DNA from: Nannocystis sp. RBIL2
GTDB taxonomy: Bacteria; Myxococcota_A; Polyangia; Nannocystales; Nannocystaceae
Reading direction: 5' to 3'
DNA length: 64,000 nt
Assembly: GCF_026626745.1 (NCBI RefSeq)
Contig: NZ_JAPNJW010000002.1
Coordinates: 1,382,151 to 1,446,150 of the forward strand
The number at the start of each line of letters is the position of its first letter. The first letter of the stretch is position 1. Positions 3,751-21,326 of the stretch are shown here, one piece after another. The notes beneath the pieces are model-generated. The model was not told the origin of the DNA and did no database searches. It was given only the letters and a program-made list of their open reading frames with translations. The position numbers and the translations under genes were made by a program.

Positions 3751-5616
3751 TCAGCCTCCGCGCGCCTCGTACTCGAGCGCCCCCGCCGTGACCACCTCGC
3801 CGGCCCGCGCCAGGGAGAAGCGGACGCTCGTCCCGCGGACCTCGAGCCGCAGCACCAGCGCGTCGCCCGGCGCGATCGGCCGGGTGAACTTCAGCCGCGT
3901 CGCCCGCCGCAGCGGCCCCAGCTCCGGCCGCAGCGCCGCCACCTGCGGCACCACCAGCGCGGTCAGCTGCGCCACCCCCGGCAGCACCGGCAGGGCGTCG
4001 AAGTGCCCGCGGAAGAACGCCAGGTCGACCGGCACCCCCACCTCGACCTCGTGCACCGACGACCCGCCCTCTTCGCGCAGCGTATGCCCGCGCAGCGCGA
4101 ACGCCGACGCCCCCGGGCCACCTGTCCCCGCGGACATGTCCCGTGAGCCACTCAGCCCCGATCCCGCGCTCGGTGCGTCCGTCGCCGAACTTACGGACAT
4201 GTCCCTCGGGCCACCCGCCGCGACTTCCTCTTCGCCCGCGAGCCCGAGCAGCGCGTGCAGCTTGCGCCGCGTCAGCTTGCCGCTCGGCTCGCGCGGCAGC
4301 GCCGGCACCACCTTGATCCGCCGCGGCACCACCACCTGGTCGAACCACGGCAACAGCGCCCGGCGCAGCTCGGCCACCAGCTCGCCGGCGTCGCGCCCGC
4401 CCTCGCGCGCGACCACGGCGGCCACCAGCTCGTGCCCGCGGGCGCCCGGCGACTCGACCGCCACCACCGCGGCGTCGGCCACCGCGGGCAGCGCCAGCAG
4501 CCGCTGCTCGACCTCGGCCACCGCCACTCGCTTGCCGGCGATCTTCACCACCCCGTCGAGCCGCCCGCGCAGGTGGAACCCGCCGCGCGCGTCGACCTCG
4601 ACGCGATCCTCGCACGGGTACGGCACCGGCGCGTCCGGCGCCAAGAACGGCGAGCGCAGCAGCAGCCGGCCCTCGGCCGCCACCTCGACAGTCACTCCCG
4701 GCAGCGGCGTCCAGGCTGGCTCCGGGGACATGTCCCTTAAAACATCCTCGTGCCGCCGCCAGCCGATCCCGCCGGTCTCCGACGAGCCGTACACCTCGGT
4801 CACCTGCAGGCCCAGCTTCGTCAGCAGCTCGTCGGCGGTCGCCCGTGGCAACGGCGCGCCCGACGAGAACACCCGCGACAGCGGCGGCAGGTCGCCGCGC
4901 GTCAGCACCGTCAGGCCGCGCAGGTGCGCCGGCGTGCTGACCAGCACCGTCGCCGCCACCTGCCGCGCCGCCCGGGCCACCGTCTCGGCGTGCAGCGGCG
5001 TCTCGCGGGCGAACGCCGCCCCCGCGGCCAGCGGCGCCAGGATCCCGAACAGCAGCCCGTAGAGGTGGTACGGCGGCACCGTCGCCAGCGCCACCTCCCC
5101 GGCCCGCAGGGCGAACGTGGCCGCCAGCGCCTGCGCCTCGCCGAGCAGCTGCGCGGCCGTCTTGGCGCACGGCTGGTGGTCGCCGGTGCTGCCCGAGGTG
5201 TACACGACCGCCAGCCGGCGATCGGCCGCCAGCGCTTCGGGCCATGTCGGATCGGCCATGTCCCCTGAAACATGTTCCGAGAGCCACTCGCGGACGTCCT
5301 GCGCGTCGGCCAGGTCGGAGTCGTGCAGCAGCGCGACCACCGACGGCCGCCCGGCCAGCTCGCGCACGGCCGCCGGCTGGGCGTTGGGCGGCAGCGCGAC
5401 CGCGTGGCCGCGCAGCCACGCCGCCAGGGTCGTCACCGCCAGGTGATAGCGGTCGCCGCACACCACCAGCACCTCGCTGCCCGGCGCCGGCGCCGGCAGC
5501 CGCGCCGCGATGCCCCTCGCGTCGCGCATGAGCTCGCCGGCCGTGCGCGCGCCGGCCTCGCCGACGGCGACGGGCGCCACGGGATCGGTGTGGACGAGCG
5601 GGACGAACGACTTCAT
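3751..5616 (-). CDS. AMP-dependent synthetase/ligase fused to a C-terminal hotdog (FabZ/MaoC-like) dehydratase domain
   Basis: Adenylation motifs YTSGSTG, EVYGSSET and PSGKLTRRK, followed by a hotdog domain (LRGHTLREEGG...FFRGHFDALPVLPGVAQL). The true start is MKSFVPLVHTD at 5616, ATGA-coupled to the upstream gene. The ORF-track N-terminal extension overlaps the membrane-protein frame. Confidence 0.8.
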   Translation of the reverse strand: MKSFVPLVHTDPVAPVAVGEAGARTAGELMRDARGIAARLPAPAPGSEVLVVCGDRYHLAVTTLAAWLRGHAVALPPNAQPAAVRELAGRPSVVALLHDSDLADAQDVREWLSEHVSGDMADPTWPEALAADRRLAVVYTSGSTGDHQPCAKTAAQLLGEAQALAATFALRAGEVALATVPPYHLYGLLFGILAPLAAGAAFARETPLHAETVARAARQVAATVLVSTPAHLRGLTVLTRGDLPPLSRVFSSGAPLPRATADELLTKLGLQVTEVYGSSETGGIGWRRHEDVLRDMSPEPAWTPLPGVTVEVAAEGRLLLRSPFLAPDAPVPYPCEDRVEVDARGGFHLRGRLDGVVKIAGKRVAVAEVEQRLLALPAVADAAVVAVESPGARGHELVAAVVAREGGRDAGELVAELRRALLPWFDQVVVPRRIKVVPALPREPSGKLTRRKLHALLGLAGEEEVAAGGPRDMSVSSATDAPSAGSGLSGSRDMSAGTGGPGASAFALRGHTLREEGGSSVHEVEVGVPVDLAFFRGHFDALPVLPGVAQLTALVVPQVAALRPELGPLRRATRLKFTRPIAPGDALVLRLEVRGTSVRFSLARAGEVVTAGALEYEARGG

Positions 5617-7688: not shown

Positions 7689-9473
7689 ATGCACGACGAC
7701 GGCGCGCGCTGGCTACCCAAGTTTCTCGCGGACAGCGGCTACCGCCACGCGATGTATACCCATCAGTGGACCGAGGTGTTGATCTGGCGCGACACGGAGC
7801 GGTGGCTCGGCCGCGGACCCGACCGCGACAGCGCCCTCGAAGATGCGCTGACGCAGATGTTCCCGTCAGCTGCCGCGCGTCAGCTCTTCGATCGCTTCCG
7901 CGACGGCCTCCAGGAGCCAGCCCGTCCGCAGGCGGCGCCACCCAGCGCCGCAGTATCCGCCGAAGTTATCCCCGCCCCGCCCGCACCGCCCGCCCCGCCC
8001 GAACCCGAGCTACCGCGCAGCCCGATCGTCGGCCGGATCCAGCTACCGACTTATCCCGCTGCTGCGGTCGCCGAGGCGCGCGAGACCCTGGAAGAGATCC
8101 TCAAGGACATCCAGGACATGCGACCCGACTTCGCGCTGATGTCGCCGCGCTATCAGAAGGTCTACATGCTGGCGTGGATCTCACGCGCGCGCAGCTTCGA
8201 CGAGCAGTTCCAGGGCGAGCACAAGATCACCGTACTGGTGCGACGGATCGCCCACGAGCTGACGAACCTCAGCAAGACCTTGTGGCCCGGCTCGGTGCAG
8301 GCGCTGCAGATGAACGCGGTGCCCGCATGTGTGGTGACCGAGCTCGGGCTCAAGACGCTGCACGCGCCGAAGACCTGGGCCGAGGCGCACGAGTTCGTGC
8401 AGAACCATCGCGAGCGCGCGATGACCAGCGAGGTCCCGGTCGACGACTACGGCTGGGCCGACCGCCCGCGCAAGGCCCCGCCGGGCCAGCCCCGCGCCCT
8501 CCTGCGCGAGGCCCAGCGCGCCGTCGAAGCCATCGCCGGCAACGTCACCGATCCGCCGCCGCGCCACCTCACCACGCCGCCGGAGGAGCTGCCGAACGAG
8601 CAGCTCGACGCGCTCGTCAAGCACGCCCAGGCGCTGCGCGACATCCGTCGCTTCATCGCCGCCGAGGACCCCGAGACCTGGGGCGCCGTCATGGGCCGCC
8701 TGCGCTGGCTCGCGGGGCGCCTCGGCGAGCGCCTGCCGCAGCTGCGTCGCTGGCTCGACCCCGAGTTCATCCCGCCGCCCGAGCGCGCCAAGACCGGGCC
8801 CTCGGCCGATCAGGTGCGCCAGCAGCAAGCGACGGTGCGAGCCGAACGCGACGCCCTGGTCGCCGCTGACAGCTTCGACGACGAGGCCCTGCTCGCCTTC
8901 CTCGGCCGGGCCTTCGACGCCCACAACACGCCCGAGGTCGCCTCGCTGGTCCAGCCGATCCGCCCGCGCATCGACGCCCTGCGCCCCGACCTGTTCGAGG
9001 ACCGCCGCATGCGTCGCCGCCTCACCGGCCTGCAGGACGTGATCAAGCGCGGAGAGCTCGGCGTGCTGCCGTCCGACAGCGACAGCGACCTCGAGGAAGA
9101 GACCGAAGACGTCGACGATCCGGGCGCGCACCTGGTCGCCCAGGTCCGGCCCAAGGTCGAGGGCAAGCGGGTCCTGTTCGTCAGCAACCGCGAAGACCCC
9201 GACCTCAAGTCGAAGCTCGAGGAGTCGCTCGGCCTCGACATCACCTGGTGCGACGGCAACGCCCGCAAGGTCCAGGCCCAGTGCGAGAGCATCTCGCGCC
9301 ACAGCTACGACTACGTGCTGATCGCCACCGGCTTCCAGGCCCACAACATCGACGGCATCCTCGCCCGCGCCGCCCGGGCCAGCGCCATCCCGTACGTCCG
9401 CGTGTTCAAGGGCCGCCCCCTCGCGGTCGCCCGCGCCCTCGCCCGCAGCCTCGGCGTCGCCTCCGCCGCCTGA
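7689..9473 (+). CDS. Hypothetical protein (594 aa)
   Basis: Long ORF with non-repetitive, balanced composition; no family recognised by eye. The alternative-frame ORFs over the same span are Arg/Pro-rich artefacts. Confidence 0.5.
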   Translation: MHDDGARWLPKFLADSGYRHAMYTHQWTEVLIWRDTERWLGRGPDRDSALEDALTQMFPSAAARQLFDRFRDGLQEPARPQAAPPSAAVSAEVIPAPPAPPAPPEPELPRSPIVGRIQLPTYPAAAVAEARETLEEILKDIQDMRPDFALMSPRYQKVYMLAWISRARSFDEQFQGEHKITVLVRRIAHELTNLSKTLWPGSVQALQMNAVPACVVTELGLKTLHAPKTWAEAHEFVQNHRERAMTSEVPVDDYGWADRPRKAPPGQPRALLREAQRAVEAIAGNVTDPPPRHLTTPPEELPNEQLDALVKHAQALRDIRRFIAAEDPETWGAVMGRLRWLAGRLGERLPQLRRWLDPEFIPPPERAKTGPSADQVRQQQATVRAERDALVAADSFDDEALLAFLGRAFDAHNTPEVASLVQPIRPRIDALRPDLFEDRRMRRRLTGLQDVIKRGELGVLPSDSDSDLEEETEDVDDPGAHLVAQVRPKVEGKRVLFVSNREDPDLKSKLEESLGLDITWCDGNARKVQAQCESISRHSYDYVLIATGFQAHNIDGILARAARASAIPYVRVFKGRPLAVARALARSLGVASAA

Positions 9474-9487
9474 GCCGCTGGCTCCGA

Positions 9488-9525
9488 GGACATGTCCTCA
9501 CGAACATGTCCTCGCGTACATGTCC
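9488..9525. repeat. Three tandem direct copies of ACATGTCCTC, 14-nt period
   Basis: GGACATGTCCtcacgAACATGTCCtcgcgTACATGTCCtc, intergenic between the gene ending at 9473 and the DUF2975/XRE operon. Confidence 0.6.
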
Positions 9526-9781
9526 TCGCAGACACGCGAGGCCGACGGTCGCGCCTCACGGCGCGCGTCCCATTGTCCAGGAGCTCATCCCAGCGCGAAC
9601 GACCCGCCCGCGGTGCGACCCGGCCCGGCTGGGCCCGCTCGCGACCTGGAGCAGATCCGTGTGGTCCTCGCCACAAAGCTCCGGCGCCCGCGCGTCCTCG
9701 CGCATCGCTCCCGATCGACGCCAGCGCCTGCAGGCCAGGCGTTCCGCCACGTTCTCCGCCGCCATGTCAAGCTAGCTTGAC

Positions 9782-10494: not shown

Positions 10495-10528
10495 GGGTCC
10501 CGCGCAACTGTCCCTTCGGACAGGCGCA

Positions 10529-11213: not shown

Positions 11214-11429
11214 GTGACCTTGCCCGCCGAGCCCCGCGAGCCGCTGCTCCTGGCCCTCCGCCGCGCCGACCCGCTCGCCTTCCGCCGCGAGGTGCGGGCG
11301 GTCCTGGCAGCCCAGTGCAGCGTGAGCGCCGGCGCCCGGGCCCTCGGCGTGCGCGAGGCGACCCTGCGCGACCTGCTGGCCGACGACGCCGAGCTGGCCC
11401 GCGGCCTCGACCTCGACGACTGGCCCTGA
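11214..11429 (+). CDS. Possible small Fis-type HTH protein
   Basis: The C-terminal AVLAAQCSVSAGARALGVREATLRDLL resembles a Fis/NtrC HTH. The start is uncertain (GTG). Confidence 0.3.
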   Translation: MTLPAEPREPLLLALRRADPLAFRREVRAVLAAQCSVSAGARALGVREATLRDLLADDAELARGLDLDDWP

Positions 11430-11510
11430 GGACAGGCTCAAATGAACATGACCGTAGAGGCATGTTCCATCGAGCATGTCCATGACACCATGTCGCACAC
11501 GTGACATCGC
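11430..11510. repeat. Cluster of CATG-centred half-palindromes
   Basis: gaACATGacc, ggCATGTTCC, gaGCATGTCC, caCCATGTCG and CACGTGACAT, all within 80 nt. Confidence 0.5.
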
Positions 11511-11961
11511 CCCCGCCGCGTGCCAGACTCGCCGCGTGCTGCAGCCCGTCGTCATCAGCGAAGCCGAGCTCGACCGCCGCCACGGCACCTTCGCCCGGCT
11601 CGCCTCGGGCGGCCGCTACGGCTGCGCCTGCGCCGTCTACGACGGCGACGTCACGATCGACGGCGACGGCTGGCTGGACGACGAGCACTGGTCGCAGCTG
11701 CAGCTCGCCGCCGCCCCCGACGACATCGGCACCATCGTCGTCACCGGCAGCCTGACGGTGCGGGGCGACCTCTGCGTGTCCGACCGGCTGATGTGCGCCG
11801 TCGTCCTCGGCGACCTGGTCGCCCGCGAGCTCGCCATCTTCGAGACCGAGTTCTACGTCGGCGGCGACCTGCGGGTCGAACGCCTGCGCGACCGCGACGA
11901 GTACCTCACGGTCGCCGGCGCGCGCTCGGTCGCCCACCCCGACGTCGATCCCGACGAATGA
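11476..11961 (+). CDS. Hypothetical protein
   Basis: 161-aa ORF downstream of the repeat cluster; the start may be the internal GTG (VLQPVVISE). Confidence 0.4.
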   Translation: MSMTPCRTRDIAPAACQTRRVLQPVVISEAELDRRHGTFARLASGGRYGCACAVYDGDVTIDGDGWLDDEHWSQLQLAAAPDDIGTIVVTGSLTVRGDLCVSDRLMCAVVLGDLVARELAIFETEFYVGGDLRVERLRDRDEYLTVAGARSVAHPDVDPDE

Positions 11962-12022
11962 ACCTGTCCCGAGTGACATGTCCCCCAGGACATGTCACTC
12001 GCCGCCTGTCCCGCAGGACAGC
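11962..12022. repeat. Nested perfect palindromes
   Basis: CCTGTCCcgaGTGACATGTCCcccaGGACATGTCACtcgccgCCTGTCCcgcaGGACAGcc. Lies in the convergent 3' intergenic region before the M16 peptidase. Confidence 0.65.
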
Positions 12023-15139: not shown

Positions 15140-17008
15140 GTGCTCTCTCCGACGCTCGCGTTGCGCTGCCCGCATTGCCAGCACGCCCTCTCGCTCGCCG
15201 ACCTCCGCGACGCCGCCGACTGCCCTGCGTGCCGCCAGTCCCACGGCTTGCCTCCGGCCGTCGCCGACGCCCTGGCCCTCTACGAGCGGGCGATCCAGCA
15301 AGCAGTCAGCGACCTGGTCCACAGCGCACCTGTCCCGAAGGTCAGCCCCGAACCCGAGGCCGAGGCCCCGCCGCCGAGCCCGCGGCTCCACGCGCGCCAC
15401 CAGCCCGGCCCCTCGGCCCGGCTGCTCGCCGCTCCCGTCCCGCCGACCACCCTGCTCTCGATCGGCCCGGCCCCGCCGCCCGCAGTCCCGGCCCCCGTGC
15501 GACCTGTCCTGAGGGACAGCGCTGCTCCGCTCGACGCTCCCGAGCCCGGCGACACCTTGCAAGGCCCCCGCCCCGGTCGCTGGGCGGAAGCCCGACCCGG
15601 CACCCTGCCGGCCGAGCTGGCCGCGGGCCTGGGCGTCCACGGCCACGACGCCGCGCCGGAGCCGGCCCAGCTGTCCCTGCCCGTCGAAGCAACTGTCTCC
15701 GCGGACACGCGATTCCAACCTGTCCCCACGGACAGCCGGAACATCGACCCCAAGGACACGCGATCTCAACCTGTCCCCACGGACAGCCAGCACTTATCTG
15801 CCCCTTCGGACAGCCACATCACCGCCCGCCACACCTCCCCGCCACCTGTCCCTGCAGACAGCTCACCCGCCGCCCCGGCCCCGCTCACCGCGGTCGCTCC
15901 CGGCTTCGACCCCGCCGCGCTGTCCGGCCCCTTGCCCGCCCCGCGCGAGCAGGCACCTGGCCTCGGGGCCAGCCTCGCCCGCGACCCGGCCGCGCGGACG
16001 ACCGCCAGCGACACCCTCCCCGGCGCCGCGTTGAACCCGTCGAACTCCTCGCTCCTGGCGATCCTCTCCAACCGCTCCGGCGCCAGCCTCAGCACGCCCT
16101 CCTCGACGGCGGGGCTCGCGGCTCCGCCCGGCGGTCTGGCCGAGGCGCCGCTGGTGGTCGCCGCGGTGCGCGAGCCCGCCGACCGCCCGCCGTCCCCCGC
16201 GACCCAGGAGCTGATCGCCGCAGTCCGCTCCTTCCTCCCCGATCGCCGCGACGTCGCCGGCCCCGAGCCCGAGGGGCGGATCCCCGCCAGCGCCCTCGCG
16301 GTCGCCCGCCGCGCCCTCCTGGCCCGCCACGCCGACGAGCGGCGCCAGCAGCAAGTCCACGACGGCGGCCTCGGTCTCCTGTTCGCCGCCATCGTCTGCG
16401 GCGGCCTGCTCCTGTTCGGCCTGTGGTACGTCGCCGCCCCGATCGCCGTCCTCGCCGTCCTCCTGCGTCTGCGCCGCGAGGAGCGCGGCGAGCGGTTCGG
16501 CGCCGAGGTCCAGCGCCTCGGCGACGCGCTCGGCGGCCAGCGCCTCCCCAGCTACGACGCCATCGCCGCGTGGTTCGATCGTCTGTGGCCCGCGCCCGTC
16601 AGCCCCGAGGCGATGTGGACCAGCCACCTGCACGGGGCGGTCCGCTGCGACGTGCACGGCTTCCCCGCGCTGGTCGACGTCCACCTGAACGAAAAGACAG
16701 CCGGCGGCGTCGTCTACCCGCCGCGGATCACCGCCTACCTCGCCGCCCTCTGGCCCAGCCGCGTGCCCTCTCTGCGCATCACCGCCACCGACCTCACCCC
16801 CGCCGCCCAGGCCCGGCTCGCGCGCCTGCGCAAGGCCGGCTACACCGTCGTCGCCGACGCCCACGGCGGCCTCATCATGCGCGCCAGCGAGTCGATCGCC
16901 CAGGCCGCGCGGGCGGACATCACCCGTCTGCCCGCGCTGCAGGTCCCGATCGGCGAGCTCGCCGACCTCGCCCGCGACCTCGGGGCCGAGCCCGTCCCCG
17001 CGCCCTAG
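15140..17008 (+). CDS. Membrane protein with N-terminal zinc ribbon, long Pro-rich disordered region and C-terminal cytoplasmic domain
   Basis: CPHCQH...CPACRQ zinc ribbon, one transmembrane helix (LLFAAIVCGGLLLFGLWYVAAPIAVLAVLL). The disordered region is built from in-frame palindromic repeats (PVPTDS, three copies). Confidence 0.55.
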   Translation: MLSPTLALRCPHCQHALSLADLRDAADCPACRQSHGLPPAVADALALYERAIQQAVSDLVHSAPVPKVSPEPEAEAPPPSPRLHARHQPGPSARLLAAPVPPTTLLSIGPAPPPAVPAPVRPVLRDSAAPLDAPEPGDTLQGPRPGRWAEARPGTLPAELAAGLGVHGHDAAPEPAQLSLPVEATVSADTRFQPVPTDSRNIDPKDTRSQPVPTDSQHLSAPSDSHITARHTSPPPVPADSSPAAPAPLTAVAPGFDPAALSGPLPAPREQAPGLGASLARDPAARTTASDTLPGAALNPSNSSLLAILSNRSGASLSTPSSTAGLAAPPGGLAEAPLVVAAVREPADRPPSPATQELIAAVRSFLPDRRDVAGPEPEGRIPASALAVARRALLARHADERRQQQVHDGGLGLLFAAIVCGGLLLFGLWYVAAPIAVLAVLLRLRREERGERFGAEVQRLGDALGGQRLPSYDAIAAWFDRLWPAPVSPEAMWTSHLHGAVRCDVHGFPALVDVHLNEKTAGGVVYPPRITAYLAALWPSRVPSLRITATDLTPAAQARLARLRKAGYTVVADAHGGLIMRASESIAQAARADITRLPALQVPIGELADLARDLGAEPVPAP

Positions 17009-18370: not shown

Positions 18371-18487
18371 GCGCTGCGCATTATCTGTCCATTTGGGCAT
18401 GTCCATTCAGACATGGCTCAAAAGACAGCAACGAACGTGAGGCCGGTTACGTGAGCATCGCGCGGGCGTTCGACTCTGTCTCTTCAA

Positions 18488-18525
18488 GAATGTCCTCCAG
18501 GACATGTCCTCTCGGGCATGTCCTC
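18488..18525. repeat. Second triple tandem ATGTCCTC array
   Basis: gAATGTCCTCcagGACATGTCCTCtcgGGCATGTCCTCg, in the convergent 3' intergenic region between the SDR and the S41 peptidase. Confidence 0.6.
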
Positions 18526-19702: not shown

Positions 19703-20275
19703 TCACTTCGCGCCGCGCGTCCGCGCCCGTGCCGGCGCCGGCTTGCCCCGCGCCGGCTTGCCCCGCGTCGGCTTCGCCCGTGCCGACCGCTTCGCCGCGC
19801 GTCGAGCCTCCGCCGCCGGCGCGACCACGCTCTTCAGCAGCAGCGCCGCCATGCGCCGGACCTCGACCTCGACCTTCGCCCGCTCGCCGAGCTCGGCGAC
19901 GCTCAGGCTGAACGGCAGGAACGCATTGGTCGCCTTCACCAGAGTCGACGCAGTCGCCGCCGCGTCCTCGACCTCGAACCGCCCGCACGCCACGCCGGCC
20001 GCCAGCACCCCGGCCACCAGCGCCACCTCGCGCTCCATGTGAGCTGTCCTTCGGGCCATGTACCCCGGCCGCACCGCCTCGAACAGCTCGTCGAGGCTCT
20101 GGCGGTACGCGCTGACGCTGTCGAACCGCCGCAGCACCCGCTCGATCAGCACCGCGCGCAGCACCTCGGCCGGATCGCCGCCCCCGCTCGCCAGCGCCAC
20201 CAGCCGCGCGTACGTCTGCGCCACCACCCGGTCGATCGACGACAGCCCGACCTCTTCCTTGCTCGGGAAGTACCA
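19703..20275 (-). pseudogene. TetR-family regulator lacking its N-terminal HTH (5'-truncated at an integration junction)
   Basis: The TetR ligand domain begins at KWYFPSKEEV. Sequence upstream of that belongs to the integrase 3' end in a different frame, so the HTH is missing. Confidence 0.6.
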
Positions 20276-20276
20276 T

Positions 20277-21326
20277 TTAGTTCGTAAACGTACGTTTAGA
20301 CCGCATCTGGACCACGTTGCCAAGCTTTGCCTGACCTTTGCCAAGTCGAGAGGACCGGGCCTCCAGCGCGGCGATGGCTTGCTTGGCAAGCGCGAGCTTG
20401 TTCACATGGACATAATACAGCAGGGTCGTCTGAAGATCCGAGTGACGGGCAAGAGCCTGAAGCGCGTACGGGCTCTCGCCGGCCTCGGCCAGGTGGGTGA
20501 GCACGGAGTGACGGATCCGGTGCGGCCCGCGGACCTCCACACCGGCCCGGACCTGGATCTTGTTCACGATCCACGCCAGCGCTTGATCCGTGGTGTGAGC
20601 GCGCCGTCCCCTCTTGGGCAGGAAGACGAACTTCACGTCGGGCCGCGTCGCCAGAAGCTCCCGGAGAGCTTCCTTCAGACGGGACGTCAGCGGGATCGTC
20701 CCGACCTCGCCCTTAGGGCTGTCCTGGAAGACACAATGGGAGACGTTCCGCTGGATCGTCATGCCCACGTCCCAGTTGATGTCCGACCACTGGAGGCCGG
20801 CGCATTCACCAATGCGCATGGCGCCGTCCACCAGCAGCAACATCAGGACTCGCTCTTCCAGGTCCTCGGCCGCATCGATCTGCTGCTCAAGCTCCGCCTC
20901 GGTGTAAACGTCCACCTTCTTTTTCTCGGCCTTGGGCCACTTGAGCGACGGAATCGCATGCATGGCTGGGAGCTTCCCCCGCTCCTTCGCCCAGTTAAGG
21001 CAAGCGGTAAGTTTCTGCTCCGCCAGCTCGATTGAACTTCGGACGCATCCACGCTCCATCATCCGCGAGCGAAGGTTCGCAAGATGCTCTTTCGCGATTT
21101 GGTCCGCACGGACCTTGCCCAGCAACGGGCCGAGGTCTTTGCGGTAAATGCTACGGTATCCGGATTGAGTGGAAGCTTTCTGATGGCGAATGTGCTCGTT
21201 GTCGAAGTCGATCCACAATTCGGCCAGCTTGGGGACTCTTTTCTCAGGTTCTTTCTTGTCCTCCTTCTTCTTCTCCGTCGCGTCTGCCTTGGGCGCGCCT
21301 TTGCACGCTTCCAAGAACATCTCCAT
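20277..21326 (-). CDS. int: Tyrosine recombinase / phage-type integrase
   Basis: C-terminal catalytic region with HRIRHS...LARHSDLQTTLLYY (R-H-R-Y). Lower-GC, Lys-rich N-terminus. Confidence 0.85.
   Translation of the reverse strand: MEMFLEACKGAPKADATEKKKEDKKEPEKRVPKLAELWIDFDNEHIRHQKASTQSGYRSIYRKDLGPLLGKVRADQIAKEHLANLRSRMMERGCVRSSIELAEQKLTACLNWAKERGKLPAMHAIPSLKWPKAEKKKVDVYTEAELEQQIDAAEDLEERVLMLLLVDGAMRIGECAGLQWSDINWDVGMTIQRNVSHCVFQDSPKGEVGTIPLTSRLKEALRELLATRPDVKFVFLPKRGRRAHTTDQALAWIVNKIQVRAGVEVRGPHRIRHSVLTHLAEAGESPYALQALARHSDLQTTLLYYVHVNKLALAKQAIAALEARSSRLGKGQAKLGNVVQMRSKRTFTN
20285..20298. other. 14-bp perfect palindrome TAAACGTACGTTTA at the integrase/TetR junction (candidate att core or integrase arm site)
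   Basis: AT-rich palindrome in GC-rich DNA, exactly where TetR homology ends and the integrase gene ends. Confidence 0.4.

Follow-up and report, generated by a model that had tools for sequence, protein, structure and literature searches.

The locus described here raises the question of whether part of a protein sequence can be fixed by a signal in the DNA that encodes it and not by the function of the protein. In Nannocystis sp. RBIL2, a gene at 15140 to 17008 of the forward strand, referred to below as the host gene, encodes a protein of 622 residues whose proline-rich linker carries repeated copies of the inverted repeat CTGTCC-N4-GGACAG. The gene belongs to a stretch of 64,000 nucleotides (contig NZ_JAPNJW010000002.1, positions 1,382,151 to 1,446,150), which is called the window and whose own numbering is used throughout. 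The initial annotation of this stretch had proposed that six copies of the repeat, all in one frame, had spread at the DNA level and had thereby created the peptide repeat. The comparison of homologous genes and of non-coding DNA gives a somewhat different answer. The peptide repeat, (P)V(P/L)xD(S/I/T), is a by-product of a DNA or RNA signal, and the locus is a natural example of a protein sequence partly set by a non-coding DNA signal instead of by protein function.

The significance of the case goes beyond a single gene. Rare codons and a rare third-position base are constant across the genus while the encoded residues drift. Each Nannocystis genome contains roughly a thousand copies of the palindrome or more, with an enrichment of about 20-fold in the DNA between convergent genes, and this pattern of abundance and location implies a putative sequence-specific factor. 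The Nannocystis group is characterized by very large genomes and by poorly understood transcription termination and chromosome organisation. Finally, peptide repeats of this kind would be mistaken for protein-level motifs by annotators and by programs that predict repeats or disorder.

Palindrome Units in the Linker of the Host Gene

The host gene and the units that it contains, all on the forward strand, are as follows.

15140..17008, forward strand: host gene, an open reading frame (ORF) with its translation, 622-residue protein
15330..15345, forward strand: palindrome unit with one mismatch, CTGTCCcgaaGGTCAG, encoding A-PVPKVS
15504..15519, forward strand: perfect palindrome unit, CTGTCCtgagGGACAG, encoding R-PVLRDS; position kept genus-wide, loop variable
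15693..15708, forward strand: degenerate unit with two mismatches, CTGTCTccgcGGACAC, encoding TVSADT
15703..15793, forward strand: in-frame tandem duplication with a 51-nt period, 15703-15742 against 15754-15793, 90% identical
15720..15735, forward strand: perfect unit, CTGTCCccacGGACAG, encoding Q-PVPTDS
15771..15786, forward strand: perfect unit, CTGTCCccacGGACAG, encoding Q-PVPTDS; second copy of the 51-nt duplication
15798..15813, forward strand: unit with one mismatch, CTGCCCcttcGGACAG, encoding SAPSDS
15846..15861, forward strand: unit with one mismatch, CTGTCCctgcAGACAG, encoding P-PVPADS; position kept in all Nannocystis orthologs

Between 15670 and 15870 there are five full CTGTCC-N4-GGACAG units (two perfect, two with one mismatch and one with two), which share the codon phase xCT GTC CNN NNG GAC AGx and encode, in order, TVSADT, PVPTDS, PVPTDS, SAPSDS and PVPADS. 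The repeats first reported for this interval are real and far above chance, and the common frame and the quoted peptides proved correct. The number given was six; the sixth unit is probably a lone half-site, CTGTCC at 15671, which has no right arm and is read in another codon phase (CTG TCC = L S). At 15754 a GGACAC is present without a left arm. Two further units in the same phase lie upstream within the host gene, at 15330 and 15504, and the left arm ACCTGTCC of the first of these is invariant in six species. Across Nannocystis the linkers of the host gene contain 5-9 palindromes each, always in one reading frame. A related palindrome, CTGGCCtcggGGCCAG, is found at 15957-15972, where it encodes APGLGAS in the same codon phase and is kept in orthologs; it may represent a unit that has degenerated or else a separate palindrome.

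In the window as a whole, exact 16-mers of the form CTGTCC-N4-GGACAG number 5, against 0.01 expected from dinucleotide-preserving shuffles, and with up to two mismatches the count is 33 against 3.85 expected. The enriched element is the core TGTCC-N4-GGACA, of which the window holds 12 exact and 37 one-mismatch copies at a spacer of 4 nt, whereas the same arms at each other spacer from 0 to 11 nt give 0-1 exact and 0-3 one-mismatch copies. From the 12 exact cores, a composition estimate puts the excess at about 200-fold. The half-sites themselves are not over-represented (TGTCC 91 times, GGACA 79 times) and behave like control 5-mers of similar composition. Everted pairs, in which GGACA is followed by TGTCC, are frequent at a spacer of 0, that is, with a 14-nt period (6 exact and 17 one-mismatch pairs, against 0-3 at other spacers). 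The extended consensus is (A/G)C(C/A)-TGTCC-N4-GGACA-(G/T), with the spacer fixed at 4 nt and the loop sequence free. About 40 different loops occur among 70 oriented sites; the arms are conserved and the loop is near-random. Maximum-order Markov k-mer enrichment did not reveal the palindrome, because the motif is gapped.

Conservation at the Nucleotide Level

The DNA of ten homologous genes was compared, including those of N. pusilla strains, N. exedens, N. bainbridge, one further species and four more distant metagenomic homologs. In all ten the linker carries the DNA motif, always in the same phase, and no case of the same peptide repeats without the DNA motif was found among them. The codon that supplies the first T of the motif is CCT at 40 of 49 sites; CCT accounts for 3.7% of the Pro codons in the genes of the window. 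The codon before the motif ends in A at 43 of the 49 sites, compared with a background of about 2% third-position A, and this holds for any residue encoded (A, R, Q, L, P, S, T or G). At approximately residue 101 a control PVP, which lies outside any palindrome, is written with CCC or CCG in all species. Of the third positions that are A or T in the window sequence, 8 of 12 within motif codons are kept in all six Nannocystis orthologs, as compared to 5 of 35 outside these codons (Fisher p = 0.0012).

Conversely, the loops and the residues that they encode change freely. The residue-122 unit reads PVLRDS, PVLKDS, PVLKDI or PAPKDS according to the species, and arms that are kept around changing loops are seen also in an orthologous intergenic unit downstream of the M16 peptidase gene. 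Since the rare codons and the arms are kept while the loops drift, the peptide repeat is dictated by a nucleotide-level signal. The proposal that a DNA-level repeat directly creates the peptide repeat is in this respect borne out: the palindrome is frequent in non-coding DNA, and its arms are kept with rare codons.

In one N. pusilla assembly (L008 10001-11860, protein P0006), the linker of the homolog is annotated in a shifted open frame, in which the palindromes read LSPRT/LSSRT. This frameshift is probably an assembly indel error, because the neighbouring M16 and S41 genes are also split in that assembly.

Change of Copy Number in the Linker

According to unit maps of seven species, each species has a cluster of 4-7 units; successive units are separated by 21 or 27 nt, and longer spacers of 30-66 nt occur occasionally. 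Tandem Repeats Finder reports a 27-nt period over 15693-15785 of the window and periods of 21 and 69 nt in the Nannocystis locus L004. The linker of N. bainbridge contains six 21-nt units together with a 69-nt higher-order duplication whose copies are 88% identical; this duplication is recent. Close strains differ by whole 21- or 27-nt units. Over ten homologs, which are phylogenetically non-independent, protein length correlates with site count (r = 0.88). Unit number changes by local in-frame tandem duplication and deletion of 21-, 27-, 51- and 69-nt blocks, each of which contains a palindrome. The residue-64, residue-122 and last units are old, because their positions are conserved across the genus.

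Both linker length and copy number, which the initial annotation had suggested comparing, vary between species and strains. Its notion of repeat spread is not borne out: the positions are old and conserved, duplication is local and tandem, and a copy in the CoaBC gene, described below, has not added length. Instead of "spread", a better description is that ancient sites have been preserved at the nucleotide level and have multiplied locally through in-frame tandem duplication.

Host Gene Product

The host protein begins with a CxxC...CxxC pattern, continues with a Pro/Ala-rich linker of about 300 residues (residues 63-359; 20% Pro, 18% Ala) predicted to be disordered, and ends with a hydrophobic helical segment at about residues 410-440 and a conserved C-terminal alpha/beta domain. 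Homologs are confined to Nannocystis and close relatives; a hypothetical protein of Nannocystis sp. ILAH1 is 99.7% identical. In 13 homologs C10, C13, C28 and C31 (CxxC-14-CxxC) are invariant, and the hydrophobic segment and the highly conserved C-terminal domain are common to all, with a linker between that varies in length and sequence. In at least 12 homologs (495-631 residues) the same frame runs through both terminal domains, and every length change is a multiple of three; the linker is therefore translated.

The protein had been described as a Zn-ribbon membrane protein with a disordered Pro-rich linker. The disordered linker is supported by the AlphaFold model (AF2), in which predicted confidence (pLDDT) is below 50 across residues 63-359 and the C-terminal domain is confidently modelled, and a hydrophobic segment is present. 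The zinc ribbon is less secure: Pfam assigned no family to the host protein at gathering score, the best zinc-ribbon matches (Zn_ribbon_4 and related) reaching 9.6-11.4 bits against cut-offs of 27-30.3, and the sole support for the putative ribbon is the four-cysteine pattern of the sequence. A fold search of the model against the PDB returned nothing at E <=0.001. The closest resemblance of the C-terminal domain (16460-17005) is to type III secretion chaperones and YbjN-like proteins, with weak matches throughout (E 0.05-1). The host gene is always divergently paired with the gene of a 900-residue M16 peptidase.

Palindromes outside the Host Gene

The same palindrome occurs between genes of the window, above all beside stop codons. 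These sites, which have no assigned strand, are listed below.

9486..9534, unstranded: intergenic array of three abutting 14-nt units (ACATGTCC-N4-GNACA), beginning 13 nt past the stop of gene 7689-9473
10508..10523, unstranded: perfect intergenic unit in a convergent spacer, 13 nt past the stop of a 75-residue HTH_3 gene
11420..11435, unstranded: unit CTGGCCcTGAGGACAG, whose loop holds the TGA stop of a conserved 71-residue gene; kept in all ortholog loci
11964..12021, unstranded: three units filling a 68-nt convergent spacer between gene 11536-11961 (forward) and the M16 peptidase gene (reverse)
18385-18414 and 18490-18519, unstranded: two abutting dimers in a convergent spacer, each beside a stop codon, that of a short-chain dehydrogenase gene (forward) and that of an S41 peptidase gene (reverse)

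Copies of the unit CTGGCCcTGAGGACAG with the same TGGCC mismatch are present in the ortholog loci L001 (6145), L002 (5328), L004 (6256), L005 (6193) and L006 (3872), and at L004 6256-6506 seven units occupy a spacer of about 260 nt. With the publicly annotated genes of the ortholog loci, palindromes cluster within tens of nucleotides of stop codons.

The distribution among organisms was assessed by a scan for exact abutting dimers in one genome per species, 185,579 species in all. The scan gave 62 dimers, 45 of them in Nannocystis and 13 in Mesorhizobium; viral contigs scanned for the dimer gave no match. The Mesorhizobium matches were rejected as the same motif: they derive from a perfect hairpin of 44 nt, unrelated to the palindrome, in which the supposed "loops" are mutually complementary. 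This palindrome, CCCCCCTCTGTCCTGCCGGACATGTCCGGCAGGACAGAGGGGGG, stands in tandem in Mesorhizobium sp. (L047 5790-5833 and 5857-5900), and a further 12 Mesorhizobium genomes have similar matches; it is apparently a long hairpin repeat specific to Mesorhizobium that fits the search pattern by coincidence. Abutting arrays of TGTCC-N4-GGACA are almost confined to Nannocystis.

To measure the location bias, exact cores were counted over 393 kb of Nannocystis DNA, in which genes had been called by a codon-usage caller trained on the window. Densities per kb are given for the whole sample and after removal of the dimers by which sequences had been ascertained.

Convergent spacers: 4.38; ascertaining dimers removed, 1.93
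Co-directional spacers: 1.19; ascertaining dimers removed, 0.86
Divergent spacers: 0.23; ascertaining dimers removed, 0.13
Coding DNA: 0.17; ascertaining dimers removed, 0.06

The same ranking is obtained in loci not chosen by the motif.

Within the window the palindrome density is about 1.4/kb in 1-21.6 kb and about 0.14/kb in 21.6-64 kb. Near this boundary a phage-integrase-family gene (20277-21326, reverse strand), which lies in a stretch of low G+C (63%), adjoins a TetR-family gene (19703-20227) at a junction at about 20270. The TetR-family gene, whose product has 230 residues in L001, has an N-terminus apparently truncated by the integrase gene, and synteny with other Nannocystis genomes stops at the same junction. 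No tRNA genes were found in the 64-kb window. The drop in palindromes to the right of 21.6 kb is as expected if the right-hand DNA was recently acquired.

Coding Copies in Other Proteins

In other Nannocystis loci the motif is found in frame in several unrelated proteins, namely, in the hinge loop of SMC (VPADMSPGTA, L059 2817-2844), in the linker between the CoaC and CoaB domains of CoaBC (LEDMSQGTA, L067 618-645) and in a multihaem cytochrome (VPEDMSSGT, L012 5025-5052). A further pair lies in the window itself:

4122-4137 and 4199-4213, reverse strand: two in-frame coding copies in the linker between the AMP-binding_C and ApeI/FabA-like domains, gene 3751-5616

All these are abutting dimers that encode x-V/L-P/E-x-D-M-S-x-x-T and occupy loops or the linkers between domains. 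The copy in CoaBC can be aligned without gaps to M. smegmatis CoaBC (PDB chain 6tgv_A), so that the motif there fills existing linker length and is not extra inserted DNA. The codon phases of 54 exact coding copies number 30, 23 and 1, and the near-empty phase is the one that would require the codons TGT (Cys) and GGA.

Interpretation and Alternative Explanations

The reading preferred here, to which a probability of roughly 0.6 is assigned, is that the units are a Nannocystis-specific iterated palindrome held at the nucleotide level, whose normal place is downstream of genes and whose peptide repeat is a by-product. The normal site would be the DNA just past genes, most of all in convergent spacers. 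The palindrome would be recognised, on duplex DNA or as a hairpin, by a sequence-specific factor that is symmetric and probably dimeric; such a reader is suggested by the fixed spacing, the free loop, the two-fold symmetry and the conservation across species. The putative role would be tied to the ends of transcription units and might consist in termination, insulation, 3'-end protection or the control of local DNA topology. In coding DNA, selection would confine the motif to places where the protein can accommodate it, and to the two phases in which neither TGT nor GGA is read as a codon. The peptide repeat of the host protein would be tolerated because it lies inside a disordered linker of about 300 residues.

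Several points weigh against this reading. What the palindrome does is something that we only infer. The density figures depend on a gene caller of our own, whose starts are approximate, and 13 of the 54 coding sites lie 90 nt or less from a called start; in addition, the 393-kb sample was partly chosen by the motif itself. Some sites in co-directional spacers are 13-50 nt upstream of the next start, so that the association with 3' ends is not exclusive. The residue-64 unit retains only its left arm in most species, which fits half-site recognition but makes a hairpin or a full dimer site less convincing. Moreover, motif-biased repair, gene conversion or some other drive that does not involve selection could also have kept the arms conserved.

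A more far-reaching form of the same idea is put forward tentatively, as a possibility of lower standing. TGTCC-N4-GGACA might be recognised by a system peculiar to Nannocystis and so far undescribed, which would mark where transcription units end, with selection on arrays of sites overriding codon usage and dictating linker residues in many proteins. If real, the site could work as a terminator or insulator that depends on a protein, as an organiser of topology or of the nucleoid, or as a signal linked to methylation, and the linker array of 7-9 sites in the host gene would itself be a functional DNA-level locus.

Among the alternatives, a role at the RNA level is unlikely. The hairpins would act as terminators or 3'-end protectors at gene ends; within the host mRNA, in the part between the N-terminal domain and the membrane segment, their effect would be to slow ribosomes or to change mRNA stability. 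Perfect units do form 6-bp stems with tetraloops (about -8 kcal/mol) and arrays reach -15 to -23 kcal/mol (z -3 to -4), the sites past stop codons are those where RNA 3'-end hairpins sit, the loops oriented with the upstream gene are mildly purine-rich, and the units bring rare codons into the linker. However, the units are not followed by a U-tract, and no terminator-like site called in 2-22 kb coincides with a palindrome. Broken pairs show no preference for G-U (9 GU, 15 AC, 21 other), the choice of the arm that degenerates has no consistent strand bias, and the spacer is rigidly 4 nt, whereas hairpins tolerate loops of 3-6 nt. The residue-64 unit combines a perfect left arm with a right arm that no longer pairs, the 221-nt repeat region folds only marginally better than shuffles (z = -1.96), and Rfam at gathering thresholds recorded no family over the whole window. 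Mobile DNA is a rather improbable source, and an origin of the REP/RAYT type is not favoured, because the loops are random, the positions conserved and the dynamics tandem only. On this account a transposase, for example, a RAYT, would spread REP-, REPIN- or MITE-like units into permissive places, and the in-frame survivors would create peptide segments. High copy number, restriction to the genus, the preference for 3' ends and convergent spacers and the arrays do resemble REP/BIME, and in-frame copies in several unrelated proteins recall the Rickettsia palindromic elements (PMC10969869). The unit nevertheless measures only 14-16 nt and has an essentially random loop, which copies of a master element should share; sites in genes and spacers keep their positions across species that differ by 10-30% in protein sequence; the CoaBC linker copy shows no added length relative to the solved homolog; and copy number changes in tandem, not by dispersal. 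Viral contigs have no match. A tblastn search of 700 kb for a RAYT-like ORF gave no significant hit, the best being an unrelated 594-residue ORF at E 0.05, a weak test in that the query was approximate and the DNA covers only about 5% of a genome.

The two remaining alternatives concern the protein and the composition of the DNA. If PVPxDS were a short linear motif selected in the protein, for example, as a docking or modification site, the palindrome would be a coincidence of codon choice inherited by duplication. Indeed, every Nannocystis ortholog has the peptide repeat and distant homologs have a weaker version of it; the units are all read in one phase, and V and D are the best-kept residues. 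Against this, the A before the motif persists although the residue varies, CCT replaces the usual CCG/CCC, the residues encoded by the loop change freely, non-coding DNA is rich in exactly this DNA word with its 4-nt spacer, and other proteins read the same DNA in another phase (DMSxxT). A protein-level linear motif is thus largely refuted by the codon evidence and is very improbable. As for an artefact of chance or composition, a Pro-rich coding region of 75% G+C might be suspected, since high-GC low-complexity sequence yields many spurious repeats and ORFs; the shuffles, the near absence of the arms at other spacers and the conservation of the motif across species rule it out, and its likelihood is negligible.

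Two classes of known sites were also considered and rejected. The palindrome is not parS, which is a 16-bp site without a spacer. Operators of the FNR/CRP type were discarded in view of the near absence of the palindrome from divergent, promoter-containing spacers.

Comparison with Known Systems

The bipartite palindrome TGTCC-N4-GGACA is apparently undescribed; a search of the literature on the motif, on Nannocystis repeats and on REP/RAYT in myxobacteria yielded nothing relevant. Its closest parallels are of several kinds. REP and BIME elements of Enterobacteria and Pseudomonas, which are associated with RAYT transposases, are short GC-rich extragenic palindromes that occur in hundreds to thousands of copies, are lineage-specific, lie at 3' ends or between convergent genes and often form arrays. 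The Nannocystis palindrome shares with them the high copy number, the lineage specificity, the downstream or convergent location and the frequent arrays. It differs in that the unit is 14-16 nt long instead of 20-40 nt, the loop is free and the arrays are abutting with a 14-nt period, not inverted doublets; furthermore, the sites are positionally conserved between species, and coding copies are tolerated and conserved. The position matrix of the palindrome flanks shows no GTAG-type 5' tetranucleotide.

DNA uptake sequences (DUS/USS) of Neisseria and Pasteurellaceae are genome-wide words; at gene ends they form inverted pairs, and the copies within genes favour certain reading frames and regions where the protein is tolerant. 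Likewise, the Nannocystis palindrome is a genome-wide short motif under nucleotide-level pressure at gene ends and in tolerant protein regions. What is enriched, however, is only the pair with its exact 4-nt gap and not the half-site, and an identity as a DNA uptake sequence was rejected for the reason that the single half-site word is not enriched.

In-frame minisatellites resemble the linker array in their head-to-tail units, with periods here of 21, 27, 51 and 69 nt, and in a copy number that varies between strains. Ordinary minisatellites, in contrast, do not have a frequent non-coding genomic signal at their core, nor rare codons conserved across species. From intrinsic (Rho-independent) terminators the Nannocystis units differ in lacking a U-tract.

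HIP1 (GCGATCGC) of cyanobacteria is a hyper-abundant palindrome, present in and between ORFs and conserved beyond codon usage, whose function is unknown (Xu, Lawrence and Durand 2018, PMC5861425; Elhai 2015, PMC4390886). The Nannocystis palindrome is similarly over-represented by at least an order of magnitude, and its sites are conserved inside and between ORFs beyond codon usage. HIP1 is an ungapped octamer common within genes, whereas the Nannocystis motif is bipartite (5+4+5), forms tandem arrays and is 25-30 times rarer in coding DNA than in convergent spacers. Lastly, the Rickettsia palindromic elements (RPEs) are in-frame palindromic repeats in unrelated genes that add peptide segments at permissive places (PMC10969869), and the Nannocystis copies in the linkers of SMC, CoaBC, the cytochrome, the acyl-AMP ligase and the host gene are comparable. 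RPEs are discrete insertions of about 100-150 bp with terminal inverted repeats; the Nannocystis unit, by contrast, is of 16 nt, grows by local tandem duplication and occupies the CoaBC linker with no added length.

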